A stretch of DNA of 64,000 nucleotides from an uncultured bacterium (GTDB lineage Bacteria > Verrucomicrobiota > Verrucomicrobiia > Verrucomicrobiales > DEV007). Positions within the stretch are counted from its first letter, which is position 1. Every line of letters begins with the position of its first letter. The DNA lies in assembly GCA_963977015.1 (NCBI GenBank), contig CAXBMO010000004.1:352001-416000 (forward strand). The letters are read 5' to 3'. Shown here in pieces: positions 44,149 through 49,860 of this stretch. A program made the position numbers and the translations under genes. The notes beneath the pieces are model-generated. The model ran no database searches and was not told where the DNA came from. It was given only the letters and a program-made list of their open reading frames with translations.

Positions 44149-44340
44149 CGTTCGGGCAGGCATCCTGCCATTACCAATTTGTCACCGACAAACGGGTAAC
44201 CGATTGATCCCCCCCGCACGAACTTTCCTCCAAAACGTCCCTTGACCGTTCCGCCCATCTCGGATTCTCTATGCGGTATGCAAAGCAGGTTCACGACGGT
44301 TTCACCCCATCAGCCCAGCGCCGAATCCCGTGGCAAACTT

Positions 44341-44383
44341 CCAGACGTTATTTGACACTTCTGTCACCTGTAAAACGTTATCC
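44341..44383 (+). other. Cassette-array start; attI-like or degenerate att site with core GTTATCC
   Basis: ctgtaaaacGTTATCC, core starting 13 nt before the first cassette ATG; ACGTTA repeated 30 bp apart; no attC-like hairpin upstream. Confidence 0.4.
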
Positions 44384-44389
44384 CTAAAA

Positions 44390-44986
44390 ATGCTTACCCG
44401 GTTCCGCGATAAATATGGCGAGGGCGAAGGTGCCAGCGACGAGCTGAACCCTGCTTTCCTATCACCACTTGAGGAACGAGCCATTGGCATCACGGAGCTT
44501 CTCAGTTCTTCAGGAGGCGCAACCTTTGCGAATGGTCTTTATCGCCTTCACGGGGCTGGAGACATCGGGGCTTGGACGAAAAACGTCGAAGCTACGTTCC
44601 CTGAGTATGAGGGGGCGTTGGTTTGTTTCGGATATGATTGGCTCGGCCGACACTTCGCTCTTGATACCACAACGGACAAAGGACAGTGGCAGATTTTACT
44701 CATCGAGCCAGGTGCTGGGGAAGCGATGCAGATTCCCAGCTCATTTGCGGATTTCCACAACATTGAATTAGTTGAGTATGCTTCAGATGCGCTCGCTGAA
44801 CCGTTTTTTATAGAGTGGCTTTCTTCGGGTGGCGCATTTCCAAAACCCACAGAGTGTATCGCTTACAAGACACCACTCTTCCTGAATGGATCAGATACTA
44901 TTGAGAATTTGGAGGTCTCTGATATGGACGTGTATTGGCATTTGTGCGGTCAACTTCGCCAATCAATCACAACCGGATTAGGGTAG
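44390..44986 (+). CDS. Tdi1/DUF1851-like (SMI1/KNR4-related) immunity protein, integron cassette
   Basis: GGATFANGLYRLH, FGYDWLGRHFALD, ECIAYKTPLFLNGSD..ENLE..D..VYW; more AT-rich than the flanks; current stop lies inside the intron end. Confidence 0.78.
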   Translation: MLTRFRDKYGEGEGASDELNPAFLSPLEERAIGITELLSSSGGATFANGLYRLHGAGDIGAWTKNVEATFPEYEGALVCFGYDWLGRHFALDTTTDKGQWQILLIEPGAGEAMQIPSSFADFHNIELVEYASDALAEPFFIEWLSSGGAFPKPTECIAYKTPLFLNGSDTIENLEVSDMDVYWHLCGQLRQSITTGLG

Positions 44987-46021
44987 GCCCAGGGTTTGAA
45001 CCGGTTTGAACCTGCCCTCCACACCACGGGACATGCGGGTCCGCACGCGGCGGTTCCAGTCAGTCATGCAAGTCCCCGTGGACCAGGCAAGGGCGCCATC
45101 TCCATGAACTCTCTTGGATGCTTTGAATTGGTTTTCAGTTTGAGTATCTGACTCGCTTCGCTCGGCTCTCTGCCCGCAACCCTACTCGGTTTGTGGCTCG
45201 CCCAATCGGGTTCAACGCCTTGAGCAGGTGCTCGGGTCGGTTCATCCGATTGGTTCGGTCCTTCATCGGGTGGATCCTCCGTTGGGCGCAAGCGCCGTCC
45301 AGTTCGTTTCCGCCATTTGGTGAGCCCTCCGGTTTCTTAGTTTAAACGGGCGATTCAACACCCCCGGCTCGTCTTCCACGACTACTACGACCTCGGCTGA
45401 CATTTACCTCCGGGACTGAATGAGGGAATTTCGCTGTGTTGTGCTAGCTCGTTCCATCCCGTCGGTCTCGGATGAGGTTCTTGTTCATCGGCTGATGGCT
45501 TTGATGTCGCTTTGGCGCTCCACTCTCCGGGCAGCCCAATGGCTGTCGGTGTCCGCTTCGCTCCCATTCCCATAACCTGCCTCCCCACATTCGGTTACCC
45601 GGCCGCAGTTGGCCTCTGCTAGTTCTTTGCATCCTTCAGATGTTCATTCTATAAACAGGGGACTTGAACGAATGGCGCAAAGATAAGCGGGGTCATCGAT
45701 AAACTTAGCCGGGTCTCCACAGGGATTTATTCCCGTGGAACAGAGACCACCCACCAGACCATTTCCATCCATACGCTCGCCCCGGCTGGCCTTGCGCCAG
45801 TCGAGCGCTGACGCCGTTTGGCACCGTCAAAACCCAGTTCGTGTGGCTGGAAGGAGTCAGCGCTCCACCGGCATGAAGCCGGTGGGGGCGATGGGTTTCA
45901 GGAGGCGGTTCTGGTGGTTGATCGAGCACCCACCGGGGCGAGCCCGGAGGAGAGCTAAGGTGGTTAACCTTGCGCCATTCGGACTTGAACCCCTTTTGGT
46001 TTCAGCCCATGCTGGACGTAC
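44978..46021 (-). mobile_element. Degenerate ORF-less class C (IIC-attC) group II intron
   Basis: Minus strand: TTGT|GTACGTCCAGCATGGGC...GGGGTTCAAGTCCCC 5' end; TCAGCCGAGGTCGTAGTAG...GAAGGACCGAAC (DIII-like); domain V GAACCGCCGCGTGCGGACCCGCATGTCCCGTGGTGTGGAGGG (45015-45056, CGC triad); CCTACCC 3' end. No RT ORF. 3' boundary +/-3 nt. Confidence 0.85.
45670..45980. mobile_element. MITE / internally deleted IS (IS4-like ends)
   Basis: Terminal IRs GAATGGCGCAAAGATAA / GAATGGCGCAAGGTTAA (15/17); flanked by a perfect 10-bp duplication GGACTTGAAC (45660-45669, 45981-45990). Confidence 0.9.
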
Positions 46022-46144
46022 ACAATGCGCCGCACACAGACACGGACCCTGGGGAGTTATCAGAAGGCACCTCACTCACAACATTCGTCAGCCTGCTGCG
46101 AACTGCTCCCCCTCGGTCCTTACTGGTCAGCGCTGACGTTCTGC
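46022..46144 (+). other. attC site (R'' interrupted by the intron)
   Basis: acaatgcgcc..ggaccctggggag...ctccccctcggtcc..gcgctgacGTTCTGC imperfect hairpin ending in a GTT core, 9 nt before the next ATG. Confidence 0.75.
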
Positions 46145-46153
46145 TTTTAAGTC

Positions 46154-46438
46154 ATGGCATCGACATTCTTCGTTCAACAGCGGACAGGTGAGACTTGGAA
46201 CGAGCTCACCGGCAAGTTCATGGAATTTTGTATTCAGATCAAGGGGGTGACGCGGGGTGGATGCCACGAAGGGGATTCAAACCCAGCGGAGCTTGACGGG
46301 CAGGTCTATGCCTCTGTTGCGATCCCTGATCACTCACCTGACCTTATGACATATCTAACGGAGTGGGCGAGCTCTGAAGATCGACAAATATGGTCTAAAG
46401 AACAGTTTGCAGAACAAGGCGTCAATCTCAATACCTGA
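46154..46438 (+). CDS. Hypothetical cassette protein
   Basis: 94-aa ORF between G|TTCTGC and the complementary GCAGAAC; reads into the attC. Confidence 0.65.
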   Translation: MASTFFVQQRTGETWNELTGKFMEFCIQIKGVTRGGCHEGDSNPAELDGQVYASVAIPDHSPDLMTYLTEWASSEDRQIWSKEQFAEQGVNLNT

Positions 46439-46532
46439 ACCGCTCCAAGTTCAAACTGCCATGACCATCACCATTTAACCCGGAAGTCGGAGCGTGCCCT
46501 CGGGCAGGTGTATAAGGAATTCGACGTTCACA
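46409..46532 (+). other. attC site
   Basis: R'' GCAGAAC (46409-15) complements the cassette's leading GTTCTGC; inner pairs atacctg/caggtgtat and cgctcc/ggagcg; R' GTTCACA (46526-32). Confidence 0.75.
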
Positions 46533-46533
46533 G

Positions 46534-46803
46534 ATGAAAGAGCGATCACGCTTCCGATTACTTTCAGGTTTTCTCCTGCTGATCATCGGCACGATGGGCG
46601 GCATTGCCCCCTTGAAAGACGGCCTACATTTCGTGACTGGGATCGACAAGTCTTACATCTCAAATACTACTGACACTGTCACTCACGCAGATCTCTGGCT
46701 GATGCATAACGGCGTCGGGAAGCTTGTAGCCACAGTGACCGGATTATACATCCTTCTTCCAGCGTTCTGGTCCGCATTGACGAAGAAGAAACAGAAGAAT
46801 TGA
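46534..46803 (+). CDS. Small two-TM hypothetical cassette protein
   Basis: ATG 1 nt after R'; two hydrophobic segments and a basic tail; no downstream attC recognised. Confidence 0.65.
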   Translation: MKERSRFRLLSGFLLLIIGTMGGIAPLKDGLHFVTGIDKSYISNTTDTVTHADLWLMHNGVGKLVATVTGLYILLPAFWSALTKKKQKN

Positions 46804-46929
46804 AATGAAAAGCAGTTTCCCGGTTAACCATTGATTGATCTTCGCGGATCTGACAATTGAGTTTTGGCTGAGTTGGATGTTCATCCTATCGATCGATAGG
46901 GGATTTGCCCAGGTTCCCTGCTTCTCTTC

Positions 46930-49086
46930 TCAACGCGTGATGACGCCGGAACTGTAGAGCATGTGCGGGTATTCGACTTGGTCCAGAATCGTGAAATGCC
47001 CCTTGCGCGTGGCCTCGGCTTTCCCGTCACGGAGAAGCGAGAATTCCGGGGTGAAGGTTTCTCCTTTCGGCAACGGCACGGTAAAGCGGGTGATACCCTG
47101 GGGCGCCTCTTGTTCGTAGAGTCGATCGCCCACCTGAATGCGCAGGGTGCCCGGCTTGGCGAGGAATGCGAGCAGCTCGATTTCATTGCGTGGCTTTGTG
47201 CTTCCCCTGAAGCTCCACGTCTTGCCCTTGCCGGGATCAACCTCGGTGTGGTTCTTGCGATAGAAATAGTAGAGGACGTCGCGAACAATCGGCGGTTGTT
47301 CGCCGGTTTTGAACCACTGCGTATAATAGGTATTCAGATCGTGCGGGGCAAAGCCGAGGCAGGACGATGGTTGCATGGCCTGCTCGGAATAATCCGACCA
47401 GCTGATGAGAAACGTCCAGTCTGCCCCGGTTTCGATGGCCTCGTGCCACAGGCCGGTCAGGGTCTGGCTCCCTCCGGCTTCCCAGAGAGCGCAGCCGCGC
47501 GTTCGCACGTCCTGCGCGCAAATCGGATAGACCACCTTGGTGGTGAGATCCCGAACTTTGGCGGTCCAATCGAACGGCCGGGGTTCGCGCGGTCCCCAAT
47601 GCGCCATGCCGTAGGCAATCGGTGAAAAATCCTGCAGCGTGTTGTAGCTGTTGAACTGGCAGACCAGGGCAATCGGATGCCCCTGGCGCTCAAGTTCCGC
47701 GATGACTCTCTTCCACCAGCCCGGGCTGTGACGTTCCGTCAGCCACATGCTCAAAACCACCCGACCGTCCTCCAATCGAAGCGTGGCAGGATGCTGGAGA
47801 ATGCGCTGAATGGTGGGTGAATTGGCGTATTCGATCGGGTCCGCATCCTGGTCGCCCTCGCCGCGAATGCCGCTCTTTCCTCCCGAATACACCGCGGGAA
47901 GGATCTTGAACTCCGGGTCGACATCCCGAGCGGCATCCAGCAGGGCGAAACTGTTTTTCTGGAAATAGCTTTGGCCGTTGGTGGGGTGCGGATCGGACCA
48001 GAAATCGGCCAGAAACCCGTCGATCCCCATCCGGCGCGCCAAACGCACCTCCTCGGTTCGCGCCATCAGCATCAGTTCATCCTGGCTGAGGTTGGACGGC
48101 AACGGGGGACGCGGCAACGGGCGGTAGAGCAGTTCCGTCCCCGCGTCGGCCCGGTCCTTTTTCTGGTTCGCCGAAGGATTCAGGACCGTCCGGGTGTACC
48201 AGGACAATCCCGGGTCGTATTGATCCACGCCGGATCCGTAGATGAAGTAGTAGGCAAACACCTTCCGCGGGCTTTGATGCAACTCGGCCAAGGGCAACTG
48301 GTCGAACGGCAGCAGGCTCCGGCGAACCGCATCCACCTGGCCCGCCATGCACACATTGTCCAACGCCCAGCCCCCAACCGCCGCATCCGGCCCCTCGCTG
48401 GAAAAGATCAACCGGGTAAACGGAGTCGCGGGATTGGAAACAGGAACCGATTTGCGCACCTGAGGACCCGAGCGTTGCCAGGTGCTTTTCGTGGCGTCGC
48501 GCAGCGAAATCGTGGCATCACCTATCTCCGGCAGCAGGACCGAAAGATGATACCACCGTCCCGTTTCCAAGGCACAGATTTCCGTGACCTGCCCAGCTGA
48601 ATCCTCCACGGAAAGCGAGCCGTTGCGCCCGAGATGCAAACCGATCCCAGTCCCTTCGGCAGACAACAACTTGCCGGCAAATTCCACACCGCCCGGTTCG
48701 CTCCCTTCGTCCAAGCGGAAGTCGAATCCGAGATAGAGTTCCCCCTCCGGCGGGGCCAGAAAATCGTGGCGAATCCCGAGACCAGAACCGCCGGTCGCAC
48801 TTTCGTCCTTCAGCACGAGCCCCTTCCCCGTCGCCTCGTTCTTTACGAAGGGCGATTCGTCCCCGGAAGAGAGTTCCAGGCTGACTCCCTCCACCAAATC
48901 GCCAACCATCTGCCACGGATGGGGCGGCAGCTTCCCCGCCGGGTATTCGTCAAAGCGATCGAGCGGCAAGGTTTCGACCGTTCCGGTTTGCGCGGACAAC
49001 TCTTCGACAGCGTTGCATCCCAGGCTGAGAATGAGAATGGGCAGCAGACCAAAAATGGGATTAAGAAATCGCATGGTTTTCGGCAC
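46930..49086 (-). CDS. Lipoprotein with GH71/GH99-like alpha-glycanase domain
   Basis: Lipobox LSLGC; VFAYYF, GIDGFLAD, LISWSDYSE, PPIVRDVLYYFYRK; N-terminal jelly-roll-like region. Confidence 0.75.
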   Translation of the reverse strand: MPKTMRFLNPIFGLLPILILSLGCNAVEELSAQTGTVETLPLDRFDEYPAGKLPPHPWQMVGDLVEGVSLELSSGDESPFVKNEATGKGLVLKDESATGGSGLGIRHDFLAPPEGELYLGFDFRLDEGSEPGGVEFAGKLLSAEGTGIGLHLGRNGSLSVEDSAGQVTEICALETGRWYHLSVLLPEIGDATISLRDATKSTWQRSGPQVRKSVPVSNPATPFTRLIFSSEGPDAAVGGWALDNVCMAGQVDAVRRSLLPFDQLPLAELHQSPRKVFAYYFIYGSGVDQYDPGLSWYTRTVLNPSANQKKDRADAGTELLYRPLPRPPLPSNLSQDELMLMARTEEVRLARRMGIDGFLADFWSDPHPTNGQSYFQKNSFALLDAARDVDPEFKILPAVYSGGKSGIRGEGDQDADPIEYANSPTIQRILQHPATLRLEDGRVVLSMWLTERHSPGWWKRVIAELERQGHPIALVCQFNSYNTLQDFSPIAYGMAHWGPREPRPFDWTAKVRDLTTKVVYPICAQDVRTRGCALWEAGGSQTLTGLWHEAIETGADWTFLISWSDYSEQAMQPSSCLGFAPHDLNTYYTQWFKTGEQPPIVRDVLYYFYRKNHTEVDPGKGKTWSFRGSTKPRNEIELLAFLAKPGTLRIQVGDRLYEQEAPQGITRFTVPLPKGETFTPEFSLLRDGKAEATRKGHFTILDQVEYPHMLYSSGVITR

Positions 49087-49331: not shown

Positions 49332-49604
49332 GTGGACTTCGAATACGATCCCGACAAGAGTCAATCCAACCAAGAAAAGCACGGGATTGATTTTGAAGAA
49401 GCACAACGTCTCTGGGTTGATGAAGACGGATTGGAAATTCCCGCTATTTGTGAAATTGAGCCAAGATTTGCTCGGTTTGCAATGCTTGATGGCAAGGTGT
49501 GGGCAGCGTTTTTCACGATGAGAGGAGAAACCATCCGAATCATATCCGTAAGACGAGCACGAACCAAAGAAGTTGAACTCTATGACAGCGGAACAATTGG
49601 ATAA
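49332..49604 (+). CDS. brnT: BrnT family toxin (DUF497)
   Basis: FEYDPDKSQSNQEKHGIDFEEA...IRIISVRRAR.KE. Confidence 0.92.
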   Translation: MDFEYDPDKSQSNQEKHGIDFEEAQRLWVDEDGLEIPAICEIEPRFARFAMLDGKVWAAFFTMRGETIRIISVRRARTKEVELYDSGTIG

Positions 49605-49860
49605 AATTTTCGATAAAGGCGAAGAGGATATTTTGCCTTACCTGGAATTGGCTAAAGCCGTGCGCCCCGGCCACAAATCAAAGAGAGTCAATGTTGATTT
49701 TCCCTCATGGATGATCGAAAGGCTTGATCGTGAGGCGAGTCGGTTAGGAGTTCCGCGCCAGTCCCTGATTAAAGTGTGGATCGCCGAAAGACTATCGGAC
49801 ACAGAATCGAAAAAGAAGCAGAACAAAAGCGTGGAGACAGACGTGGCTCCCGCAGCGTAG
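49582..49860 (+). CDS. brnA: BrnA/CopG-like RHH antitoxin
   Basis: KRVNVDFPSWMIERLDREASRLGVPRQSLIKVWIAERL; overlaps brnT. Confidence 0.9.
   Translation: MTAEQLDKIFDKGEEDILPYLELAKAVRPGHKSKRVNVDFPSWMIERLDREASRLGVPRQSLIKVWIAERLSDTESKKKQNKSVETDVAPAA

Follow-up and report, generated by a model that had tools for sequence, protein, structure and literature searches.

A split attC site and the intron within it

The 64-kb stretch of DNA analysed here (the window) lies on contig C4 of a Verrucomicrobiales genome, G000, and contains a short array of integron-type gene cassettes in which one recombination site (attC) is divided by a damaged group II intron. Coordinates are window positions unless a contig of G000 (C1, C17, C36 and so on) or of another genome is given, and comparisons were made with a panel of 134 family genomes (G000-coded labels), G000 counted in. 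The affected cassette gene is of the immunity type and occupies positions 44390-44986 on the plus strand (the start was set from homology; the open reading frame (ORF) was called at 44330-44986), and its TAG stop codon lies inside the antisense intron. Its product matches T6SS_Tdi1_C (PF08906, E 1.3e-7) and, weakly, SUKH-1. The gene occurs in seven of the 134 genomes, G000 included, and in none of the three other genomes of its own genus. Six nucleotides before the ATG, the R'-type heptamer GTTATCC (44377-44383, plus strand) marks the left boundary of the cassette; it is the exact reverse complement of the R'' sequence GGATAAC, as expected of the cassette's own crossover product. The rest of the attC lies beyond the intron at 46022-46144 (plus strand) and comprises ACAA (46022-46025, TTGT on the bottom strand), an imperfect hairpin and the R' heptamer GTTCTGC (46138-46144), where the site ends GAC GTTCTGC; the next ORF follows after 9 nt. 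The minus strand carries the intron, and the plus strand the cassette ORFs (44390-44986, 46154-46438 and 46534-46803). Judged from sequence comparison, the element at 44977-46021 is a group II class C (IIC) intron, inserted in antisense orientation behind the TTGT of the R'' box in the immunity cassette's attC, and it is very probably the dead relic of a non-autonomous IIC-attC intron, that is, one without a reverse transcriptase (RT).

The relic measures 1045 nt, with a 3' end uncertain by about 3 nt; once a 311-bp miniature inverted-repeat transposable element (MITE) and one 10-bp target duplication are subtracted, 724 nt remain. On the minus strand, the 5' end reads ...CGCATTGT|GTACGTCCAGCATGGGC. 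Alignment to a related copy on contig C17 places TTGT at 46025-46022 and the first intron base at 46021, and the first 41 nt of the intron (45981-46021, beginning GTACGTCCAGCATGGGC) match the C17 intron and introns of integron plasmids. The 3' end reads ...GGGCCTACCCTAAT on the same strand, with the final base at 44977 +/- 3 nt. In domain I (DI), RF02001 (group-II-D1D4-3) matches positions 45378-45512 on the minus strand (38.7 bits against a threshold of 32, E 2.5e-4, model positions 26-170), which is the sole Rfam match at gathering thresholds in the whole window. This segment includes a candidate exon-binding site 1 (EBS1), the ACAA in the loop GCACAACA, suggested by its complementarity to TTGT.

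The remaining domains follow on the minus strand. At a breakpoint at 45400/45401, about 72 nt (the 3' strand of DI and domain II (DII)) are missing in comparison with the C17 intron and with copies in a sister species, G126. Domain III (DIII, 45276-45400) is of the type of an ORF-less lineage, as seen from binned identities to G126 copy b and to C17, and the domain IV (DIV) remnant (45055-45275) has no RT and keeps the start region of the intron-encoded protein (ATG at 45266) and the last 9 nt before domain V (DV). DV (45019-45054) has CGC at the triad position, in a mispaired stem with a 1x3 internal loop instead of the canonical 2-nt bulge; domain VI (DVI, 44977-45018), delimited by alignments, has the branch-site sequence CCUACCC and a 10-nt tandem duplication of GGTTCAAACC at 44993-45012. 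A permissive local scan of 1.7 kb with RF00029 places DV-DVI at 44977-45055 (minus strand; 17.4 bits against a gathering threshold of 40, E 2.1). When RF00029 is run on the whole genome, the window DV is absent among the four matches at E<=10, of which three are over the cut-off (C17, C36 and C18). The weak DV is accepted as such because it is homologous to that of the C17 copy, which scores 46.4 bits. With the C17 RT as the tblastn query, no RT remnant appears in the window copy beyond the start-codon region (MNRPE...).

The joints at 44977, 45400/45401, 45669/45670 (left end of the MITE) and 46021/46022 are each bridged without differences by contigs of three metagenome runs from a second study; the locus is thus real and not an assembly artefact. 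A MITE-less joint from 45659 to 45981 in runs X1 and X3 was considered as a MITE-less allele. It more likely belongs to a paralogous intron of the C17 type, because the X3 contig that runs from the intron's first bases continues at 46035 into the attC of C17.

A sequence-only reading of this DNA had proposed an RT-less class C group II intron antisense in an attC site. The RF02001 match, the C17 homology and two uninterrupted attC sites described below (G121, C36) bear this out, and the proposed span of 44978-46025 becomes 44977-46021. That reading had also correctly recognised a IIC-type 5' end after TTGT, a DV with a CGC triad, a CCTACCC 3' end (located in DVI, minus strand) and a length of about 720 nt without the MITE and without an RT ORF. 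Its expectation of covariance-model matches came true for RF02001, whereas RF00029 stayed below threshold at DV. The suggestion that a stretch FMEMA...GLA joins the old ORF ends is borne out in part: the RT start region and the last 9 nt are retained, and a stretch of about 55 nt lies after the junction.

A full-length relative and the class of the intron

A full-length relative is present in the same genome at C17:848-2720 (minus strand, 1873 nt), with scores of 99.8 bits for RF02001, 36.2 bits for RF01998 and 46.4 bits for RF00029, and the window element aligns collinearly with it from end to end. The C17 intron is inserted antisense after TTGG in an attC of the type found in G121, just past a 168-aa ORF without a Pfam match. 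Its RT ORF, the intact copy that the sequence-only reading had thought worth seeking, is complete in its RVT_1 and GIIM domains and has no endonuclease domain (Pfam), and it is a candidate source of a trans-acting RT. Among solved structures, the C17 RT matches GsI-IIC at 413 bits, the next three at 363, 286 and 285 bits, LtrA (class IIA) at 168 bits and the T.el-type RT at 146 bits. We take the four best of these to be IIC RTs, only GsI-IIC being so named in the search output; GsI-IIC, which is not known to be of the attC type, scores similarly to the best plasmid matches of the C17 RT given below.

Among the at least 25 plasmid matches listed for the C17 RT, the best are 49.5-52.9% identical. 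Two of the plasmid introns, H4 and H16, were inspected. Each sits within a class-1 integron array and runs against the direction of the resistance cassettes; they match the same three Rfam families as C17 (RF02001, RF01998 and RF00029) and read ...GAATTGT|GTACGCCCAGCATGGGC...CTACCCGAT|TAGAC. Their 5' 17-mer, GTACGCCCAGCATGGGC, is identical in C17 and has one mismatch in the window copy. The assignment of the window RNA to class C is supported by RF02001, by the shared 5' 17-mer, and by the domains and nearest relatives of the C17 RT. As to the class C ribozyme domains in the window, DI is over threshold, DV (with CGC) and DVI are recognisable but sub-threshold, and DII and part of DI are gone.

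An RT-less lineage in related genomes

A 186-nt probe from G126 that spans the RT-deletion junction was searched in the 134 family genomes. The junction is common to nine copies in 4 of the 134: six in G126 (same genus, sister species), one in G124 (same genus), one in G020 (another genus) and the one in the window, where the match is split by a 51-nt insert. In the other nine genomes with a probe match, the match stops where homology to RT-bearing introns stops. Across the junction, the window copy is 80-81% identical to G126 copy b, and the G020 copy 74%. Four G126 copies match RF02001 at 112-120 bits over the full model and RF00029 at 40-49 bits. Copies b (688 nt) and c (686 nt) are complete; they read TTGT|GTGTGCCC...CCCGAT|TCG, and their flanks are unrelated. 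Copy a has a truncated 5' end. Identity to copy b is 94-98% for copies a, c and d and for a further one on contig C3 of G126. An IS630-like element of 1236 bp with a 382-aa transposase ORF (L027 3673-4908, on G126 contig C17) interrupts copy d. The IS630-like element is another mobile DNA that landed in DI of the same intron family.

Related RT-bearing introns accompany the ORF-less copies in both genomes. In G000 this is the C17 intron; in G126 it is an intron on contig C3, 870 bp downstream of the ORF-less copy there and 94% identical over the first 516 nt. Since DIII-DIV recurs elsewhere with both sides of the junction, the RT loss was not local. On the strength of these alignments, loss of the RT is a lineage trait rather than local decay: an RT-less IIC-attC lineage exists, and it is probably moved in trans by the RT of related full-length introns. 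The window copy, with its incomplete ribozyme, does not itself qualify as an ORF-less intron; the lineage does so in G126 through copies b and c. Such a lineage, shown here by its shared deletion junction and by full-length members in a sister species, appears to be new. None of the titles and abstracts listed in literature searches describes an ORF-less IIC-attC lineage, which is not proof that none is in print.

The insertion point in the attC bottom strand

IIC-attC introns are defined, according to PMC7923331 and PMC3001079, by a TTGT/T insertion point within R'' on the bottom strand of an attC and by an orientation opposite to the cassettes, and by the same sources they also occur in clusters of attC sites lacking integron integrases (CALINs). 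The closest homologue of the immunity gene, on G121 contig C213 from another genus (80% aa identity, protein end ...QSTTTG*), shows the site without the intron. Its DNA at the gene end reads GGGATAACAAACCGG, and the bottom strand, TTGT|TATCCC, is the empty target. The orthologous site, GGGATAACAA, is followed by a 125-nt imperfect attC-type hairpin, whose base pairs GGCTAAC with GTTATCC and which ends GTTAGCC just before the next same-strand ORF. The cassette DNAs of the window and G121 are about 83% identical, and the homology starts exactly at GTTATCC and ends ...GGAT.

On the other side of the intron, positions 46022-46150 align with an uninterrupted paralogous attC at C36:38870-38998 (99/129 identical, z 12.7). 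This paralogue, GACTAACAATGCG, reads ...GAAGACTAACAATGCGCCGG..., ends GCC GTTCTGT and has the bottom strand CATTGT|TAGTC, and the 5' junction in the window reads CATTGT|intron. The insertion point lies between TTGT and T of R'' (top strand GGATA|ACAA), and the window copy lacks the exon T that should follow on the 3' side. The attC elements found are R'' GGATAAC (in G121 and in the reconstructed window site), R' GTTCTGC and the left end GTTATCC. In the intron family, 8 of the 10 5' junctions examined end in TTGT (window, C6, C16, G126 copies b, c, d and e, and G027), the others being C17 with TTGG and G020 with TTGA; each of the eight top-strand flanks that were examined closes with an R'-like heptamer (AC-GTTNNNN), some 70-125 nt away from the junction. 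The sequence-only reading had named TTGT/T on the attC bottom strand as the target, and the empty orthologue, the uninterrupted paralogue and the left boundary G|TTATCC all agree with it. The string it had expected in relatives without the intron, GGATAACAATGCG, was recovered in two halves, GGGATAACAA in the G121 orthologue and GACTAACAATGCGCCGG in the C36 attC.

Lesions of the intron and the effect on the cassette

Seven lesions distinguish the window copy. The first is the MITE in DI at 45670-45980 (311 bp), bounded by the terminal inverted repeats GAATGGCGCAAG; the target sequence GGACTTGAAC is duplicated perfectly over 10 bp on its two sides (45660-45669 and 45981-45990). The second, also in DI, is an inserted 67-nt structured module (ATGGGAGCG...GCGACATCAA) at 45501-45567 (minus strand), which is absent from the C17 and G126 copies. 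The third is the loss of about 72 nt between GGAGGTAAATG and TCAGCCGAGG at 45401|45400, and with them the whole of DII and the 3' strand of DI; this gap, already suspected from the sequence alone, is evident against both the C17 and the G126 copies. The fourth is a 51-nt extra segment in DIV (45116-45166, minus strand) that is absent from all aligned G126 ORF-less copies and has no other match in the genome. The fifth is the 1x3 internal loop in the DV stem (fold energy -15.7 kcal/mol versus -21.4 kcal/mol in C17), and the sixth is the 10-nt tandem duplication in DVI (-15.3 kcal/mol versus -21.3 kcal/mol in C17). Finally, the 3' junction reads ACCGGATTAGGG, where GGATA joined to the intron end ...CCCUAAU of the C16 copy predicts ACCGGATAATTAGGG; 3 nt were apparently lost.

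The apparent loss gives TTA GGG TAG, and the cassette protein ends ...TTGLG* in the window versus ...TTG* in G121, an extension of two residues up to the next stop, which is in the intron. This extension is best explained by the 3-nt loss because a clean insertion would keep the TAA stop. An altered C-terminus of the cassette protein had been predicted; it is indeed changed, but only by these two residues. From its lesions, the window copy should neither splice nor move. Consequences are also expected for the cassette: the R'' half of the attC is now 1 kb away from the rest of the site, so integrase excision of the cassette alone should fail. Both parts of the earlier proposal of a dead or non-autonomous intron hold, in that the copy is dead by its lesions and the lineage is non-autonomous.

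Proposed history and its alternatives

Very probably, a member of the RT-less lineage retrohomed into the bottom strand of the immunity cassette's attC, between TTGT and T of R'', and so came to lie antisense to the cassette gene. The cassette is part of a short array, with no integrase gene on the contig. The lineage keeps the whole ribozyme and the start of DIV without an RT and is presumably spliced and mobilised in trans by a related RT, one such RT-bearing intron being that on contig C17 of G000. Later decay brought the MITE, 31-41 nt from the 5' end, the 67-nt module, the 72-nt loss, the mispairing of DV, the duplication in DVI and, apparently, the 3-nt loss.

Several observations weigh against this history. 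The window DV alone is below the Rfam threshold (17.4 bits versus 40, RF00029). In fold energy, neither attC hairpin stands out significantly from shuffled sequences (z -1.24 at the window flank, -1.86 in G121), and the attC call is made from architecture and homology, not from a dedicated attC model. There is no integron integrase gene on C4, and the only TIGR02249 match above the cut-off is at C1:216518-217420; with the integrase only on another contig, the array is CALIN-like. A search for an outward promoter like the IIC-attC Pout gave 0 sigma-70-like sites in 44200-46600 versus 1.1 expected from shuffles, with an E. coli consensus that may not suit the host phylum. In G126, the closest RT-bearing relative (C3) has a frameshifted RT in that assembly. 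The trans-mobilisation of the RT-less lineage is a step that we infer, and the 3-nt junction loss is deduced from two comparators rather than observed.

A further complication is that the intron is a mosaic. On the minus strand, DI (46021-45381) is 85-95% identical to C17 (about 94% overall) and 60-85% to G126 copy b, DIII-DIV (45380-45181) is 45-66% identical to C17 and 82-95% to copy b (78% in one bin), and DV-DVI (45060-44981) is 85-91% identical to C17 (34/40, 29/32) and 72-78% to copy b. Binned by 40 nt, DIII (45276-45400) agrees with copy b at 33-38 of 40 positions per bin, two of its three bins reaching 37-38, versus 20-26 of 38-40 with C17. The first switch of parentage, from C17-like to ORF-less-like, coincides with the 72-nt gap at 45401|45400, so that this gap is possibly the scar of a recombination event and not a plain deletion. 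The type of attC also changes exactly at the intron. The window attC, which is of the C36 type, is unrelated to that of the G121 orthologue (z 0.9), and the G121 type is present in G000 at the site of the C17 intron (z 9.3). The core of the G121 attC (GATTGACT..C.TGATTCGAA, <=3 mismatches) has 12 scattered matches in the genome, of which only the one beside the C17 intron is informative.

These observations bring in another history, which we regard as unlikely, in which intron copies in two attC sites recombined and joined the immunity gene to a foreign attC, leaving the 72-nt gap as the crossover scar. Recombination between IIC-attC intron copies is proposed, as described in PMC7923331, to join genes to new attC sites, and the model would account for a G121 homology that runs from GTTATCC to GGAT and halts exactly at the intron, for an attC homologous to that of C36 while the G121 type sits at C17, and for the switch of parentage at the gap. 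However, there are two switches, DV-DVI being again C17-like, so that gene conversion fits better than a single crossover; moreover, other processes may also replace or homogenise the attC sites in chromosomal arrays, and the comparison has just one orthologue.

It is more doubtful still that a full-length, RT-bearing intron was inserted here and decayed locally without ever having been an ORF-less mobile copy. DI and DV-DVI are indeed most like the RT-bearing C17 intron (85-95%), intron fragments are common in G000 (C6, C16, C31, C41 and C8), and a resident full-length copy could possibly have been converted by an ORF-less one. On the other hand, DIII-DIV is collinear with outside copies on both sides of the junction (82-95% to copy b at 45380-45181), and an independent local deletion would not recreate the same junction. 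A target that was an ordinary terminator-like hairpin, as used by most IIC introns, instead of an attC is highly improbable. It would agree with the lack of an integrase on the contig and with the non-significant folds, and attC-type introns can still use terminators, as stated in PMC7923331; but the R'' and R' heptamers fit the attC pattern, the left end of the cassette is complementary to R'', each small same-strand ORF has such a site after it, two families of attC sequence are shared between genomes, a second attC is present at 46439-46533, and no T run follows the hairpin. Hardly credible, finally, is a window copy that still works as a non-autonomous intron with help in trans, for although its 5' end, EBS1-like loop, DV triad and DVI branch site are recognisable and an intact related RT is encoded on C17, the copy has lost DII entirely along with the 3' strand of DI, the MITE with its target duplication (321 bp) and the 67-nt module break DI, DV scores 17.4 bits versus 40-49 in intact copies, and the 3' junction lacks the expected T of the exon.

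Neighbouring cassettes and other mobile DNA

The next cassette ORF of the array (46154-46438, plus strand) encodes 94 aa without a Pfam match. It is followed by the second attC-like site (46439-46533, plus strand), which is similar to the attC beside the C16 intron fragment (z 9.7) and ends GAC GTTCACA G ATG. The region upstream of the immunity cassette (44149-44383) and the end of the array (46804-46930) bear no convincing resemblance to any of 11 attC sequences (z <=3.3). At this end, positions 46828-46869 (minus strand) contain a 42-nt match to the 3' coding region of the C17 RT (83% identity, E 5e-4), and an Rfam check finds no intron RNA domain there; the match is possibly a relic or possibly due to chance. 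About 3 kb from the array, a BrnT/BrnA toxin-antitoxin pair occupies 49332-49860 on the plus strand (PF04365, E 1.3e-23, with a CopG-type antitoxin). BrnT/BrnA-like pairs are reported in intron-bearing cassette arrays (PMC7923331).

The MITE has inverted repeats, a target duplication and multiple copies, with five full-length copies in the genome at 86-87% identity and partial ones in addition. The family comprises the window copy (45670-45980), C8:29142-29452, C1:557266-557564, C6:339912-340213, C10:5913-6223, C36:46391-46649 and C6:269143-269273. The target duplication is a perfect 10 bp in the window and an imperfect 9-10 bp at C1 and C10. Group II intron pieces contain or neighbour three of the copies, which are the window copy itself, C6:269143 (close to the fragment at C6:269556) and C8:29142 (close to an RT fragment at C8:29503). 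A motif scan, to which the search for an autonomous partner was limited, revealed none.

The module in DI of the window intron has counterparts of 66-72 nt (ATGGGAGCGAAGCGGAC...GCGACATCAA) with sharp ends, always after (T/G)GGGA. Besides 45501-45567 (minus strand) in the window, copies are found at L032 2018-2088, L028 1058-1127, L029 1063-1132, L030 1094-1165, L031 1015-1084 and C6:270554-270678. As to their contexts, another copy is in DII of a different intron in G125, and four other genomes have copies without a nearby Rfam intron match. The central hairpin covaries (GACAGCC/GGCTGCC, GACTGCC/GGCAGCC and GACCGCC/GGCGGCC), and the module has the appearance of a very small insertion element with site specificity, or of a structured repeat.

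Intron fragments are present at C6:269556-270678, C16:77-1018, C31:26576-26867 and C41:12881-13138, with 3' and 5' ends about one cassette apart, which suggests that G000 holds further cassette arrays strewn with intron remains. The 3' end of the C31 fragment is followed by three tandem repeats of TAGCCCTACCCGAT. A second type of group II intron, at C36:39668-39742 and C18:44113-46987, has the 3' end ...CCCTACCTTGAT and an RT 41% identical to that of C17. On C36, 4 nt separate the end of this intron from the start of a cassette ORF, and that cassette's attC is the one paralogous to the window attC.

Relation to known introns

To our knowledge, IIC-attC introns are the one retroelement class known inside integron recombination sites, and they are known as RT-encoding elements, mostly from proteobacterial integrons. 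In the lineage described here, the deletion junction is kept across two genera, and one genome has six copies, two of them full-length with precise TTGT...GAU|T ends. The 686-688-nt copies would represent a compact class C ribozyme with which trans-mobilisation into attC sites could well be tested. The window locus itself is more ordinary, with an attC that was split by an intron later destroyed by other mobile DNA. That the attC departs from that of the orthologue precisely where the intron lies offers a clue to how the attC of a cassette can change; if the exchange of attC sites between intron copies were true, it would be field evidence that IIC-attC introns help to build or re-tool integron cassettes. 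According to PMC4424553, bacterial ORF-less introns are rare, nearly always accompany related introns encoding a protein that may act in trans, and non-mobile derivatives do not persist long. The RT-less lineage would be a counter-example to the rarity and short persistence described there.

Among known systems, the closest likeness is to the S.ma.I2-lineage IIC-attC introns of plasmids, such as those after catB3 in Providencia pIMP4_000369 and after blaIMP-26 in Klebsiella pIMP1572. The likeness extends to the Rfam families, the 5' end GTACGCCCAGCATGGGC (with one mismatch in the window), the CUACCC..AU 3' end, the TTGT/T target within R'' of the bottom strand of an attC, and the orientation against the cassettes. 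Unlike these introns, the window copy has no RT gene, a damaged ribozyme and no outward sigma-70-type promoter that could be found, and its host belongs to the Verrucomicrobiales and is not the bearer of a proteobacterial mobile integron. The family of ORF-less introns of Thermosynechococcus elongatus (PMC4424553) is similar in that RT-less copies occur in genomes with related RT-bearing introns and in that multiple near-identical copies occupy different sites. Its members differ in being CL/IIB-type introns that home into genes, whereas the lineage found here is of class C and homes into attC sites, with an action in trans that we infer. Finally, UHB.F1 and H.ha.F1/F2 (PMC7923331) are likewise decayed introns in CALIN-type arrays with toxin-antitoxin cassettes nearby, the counterpart here being BrnT/BrnA; those introns keep RT remnants, whereas the lineage of the window copy lost the RT before it spread.

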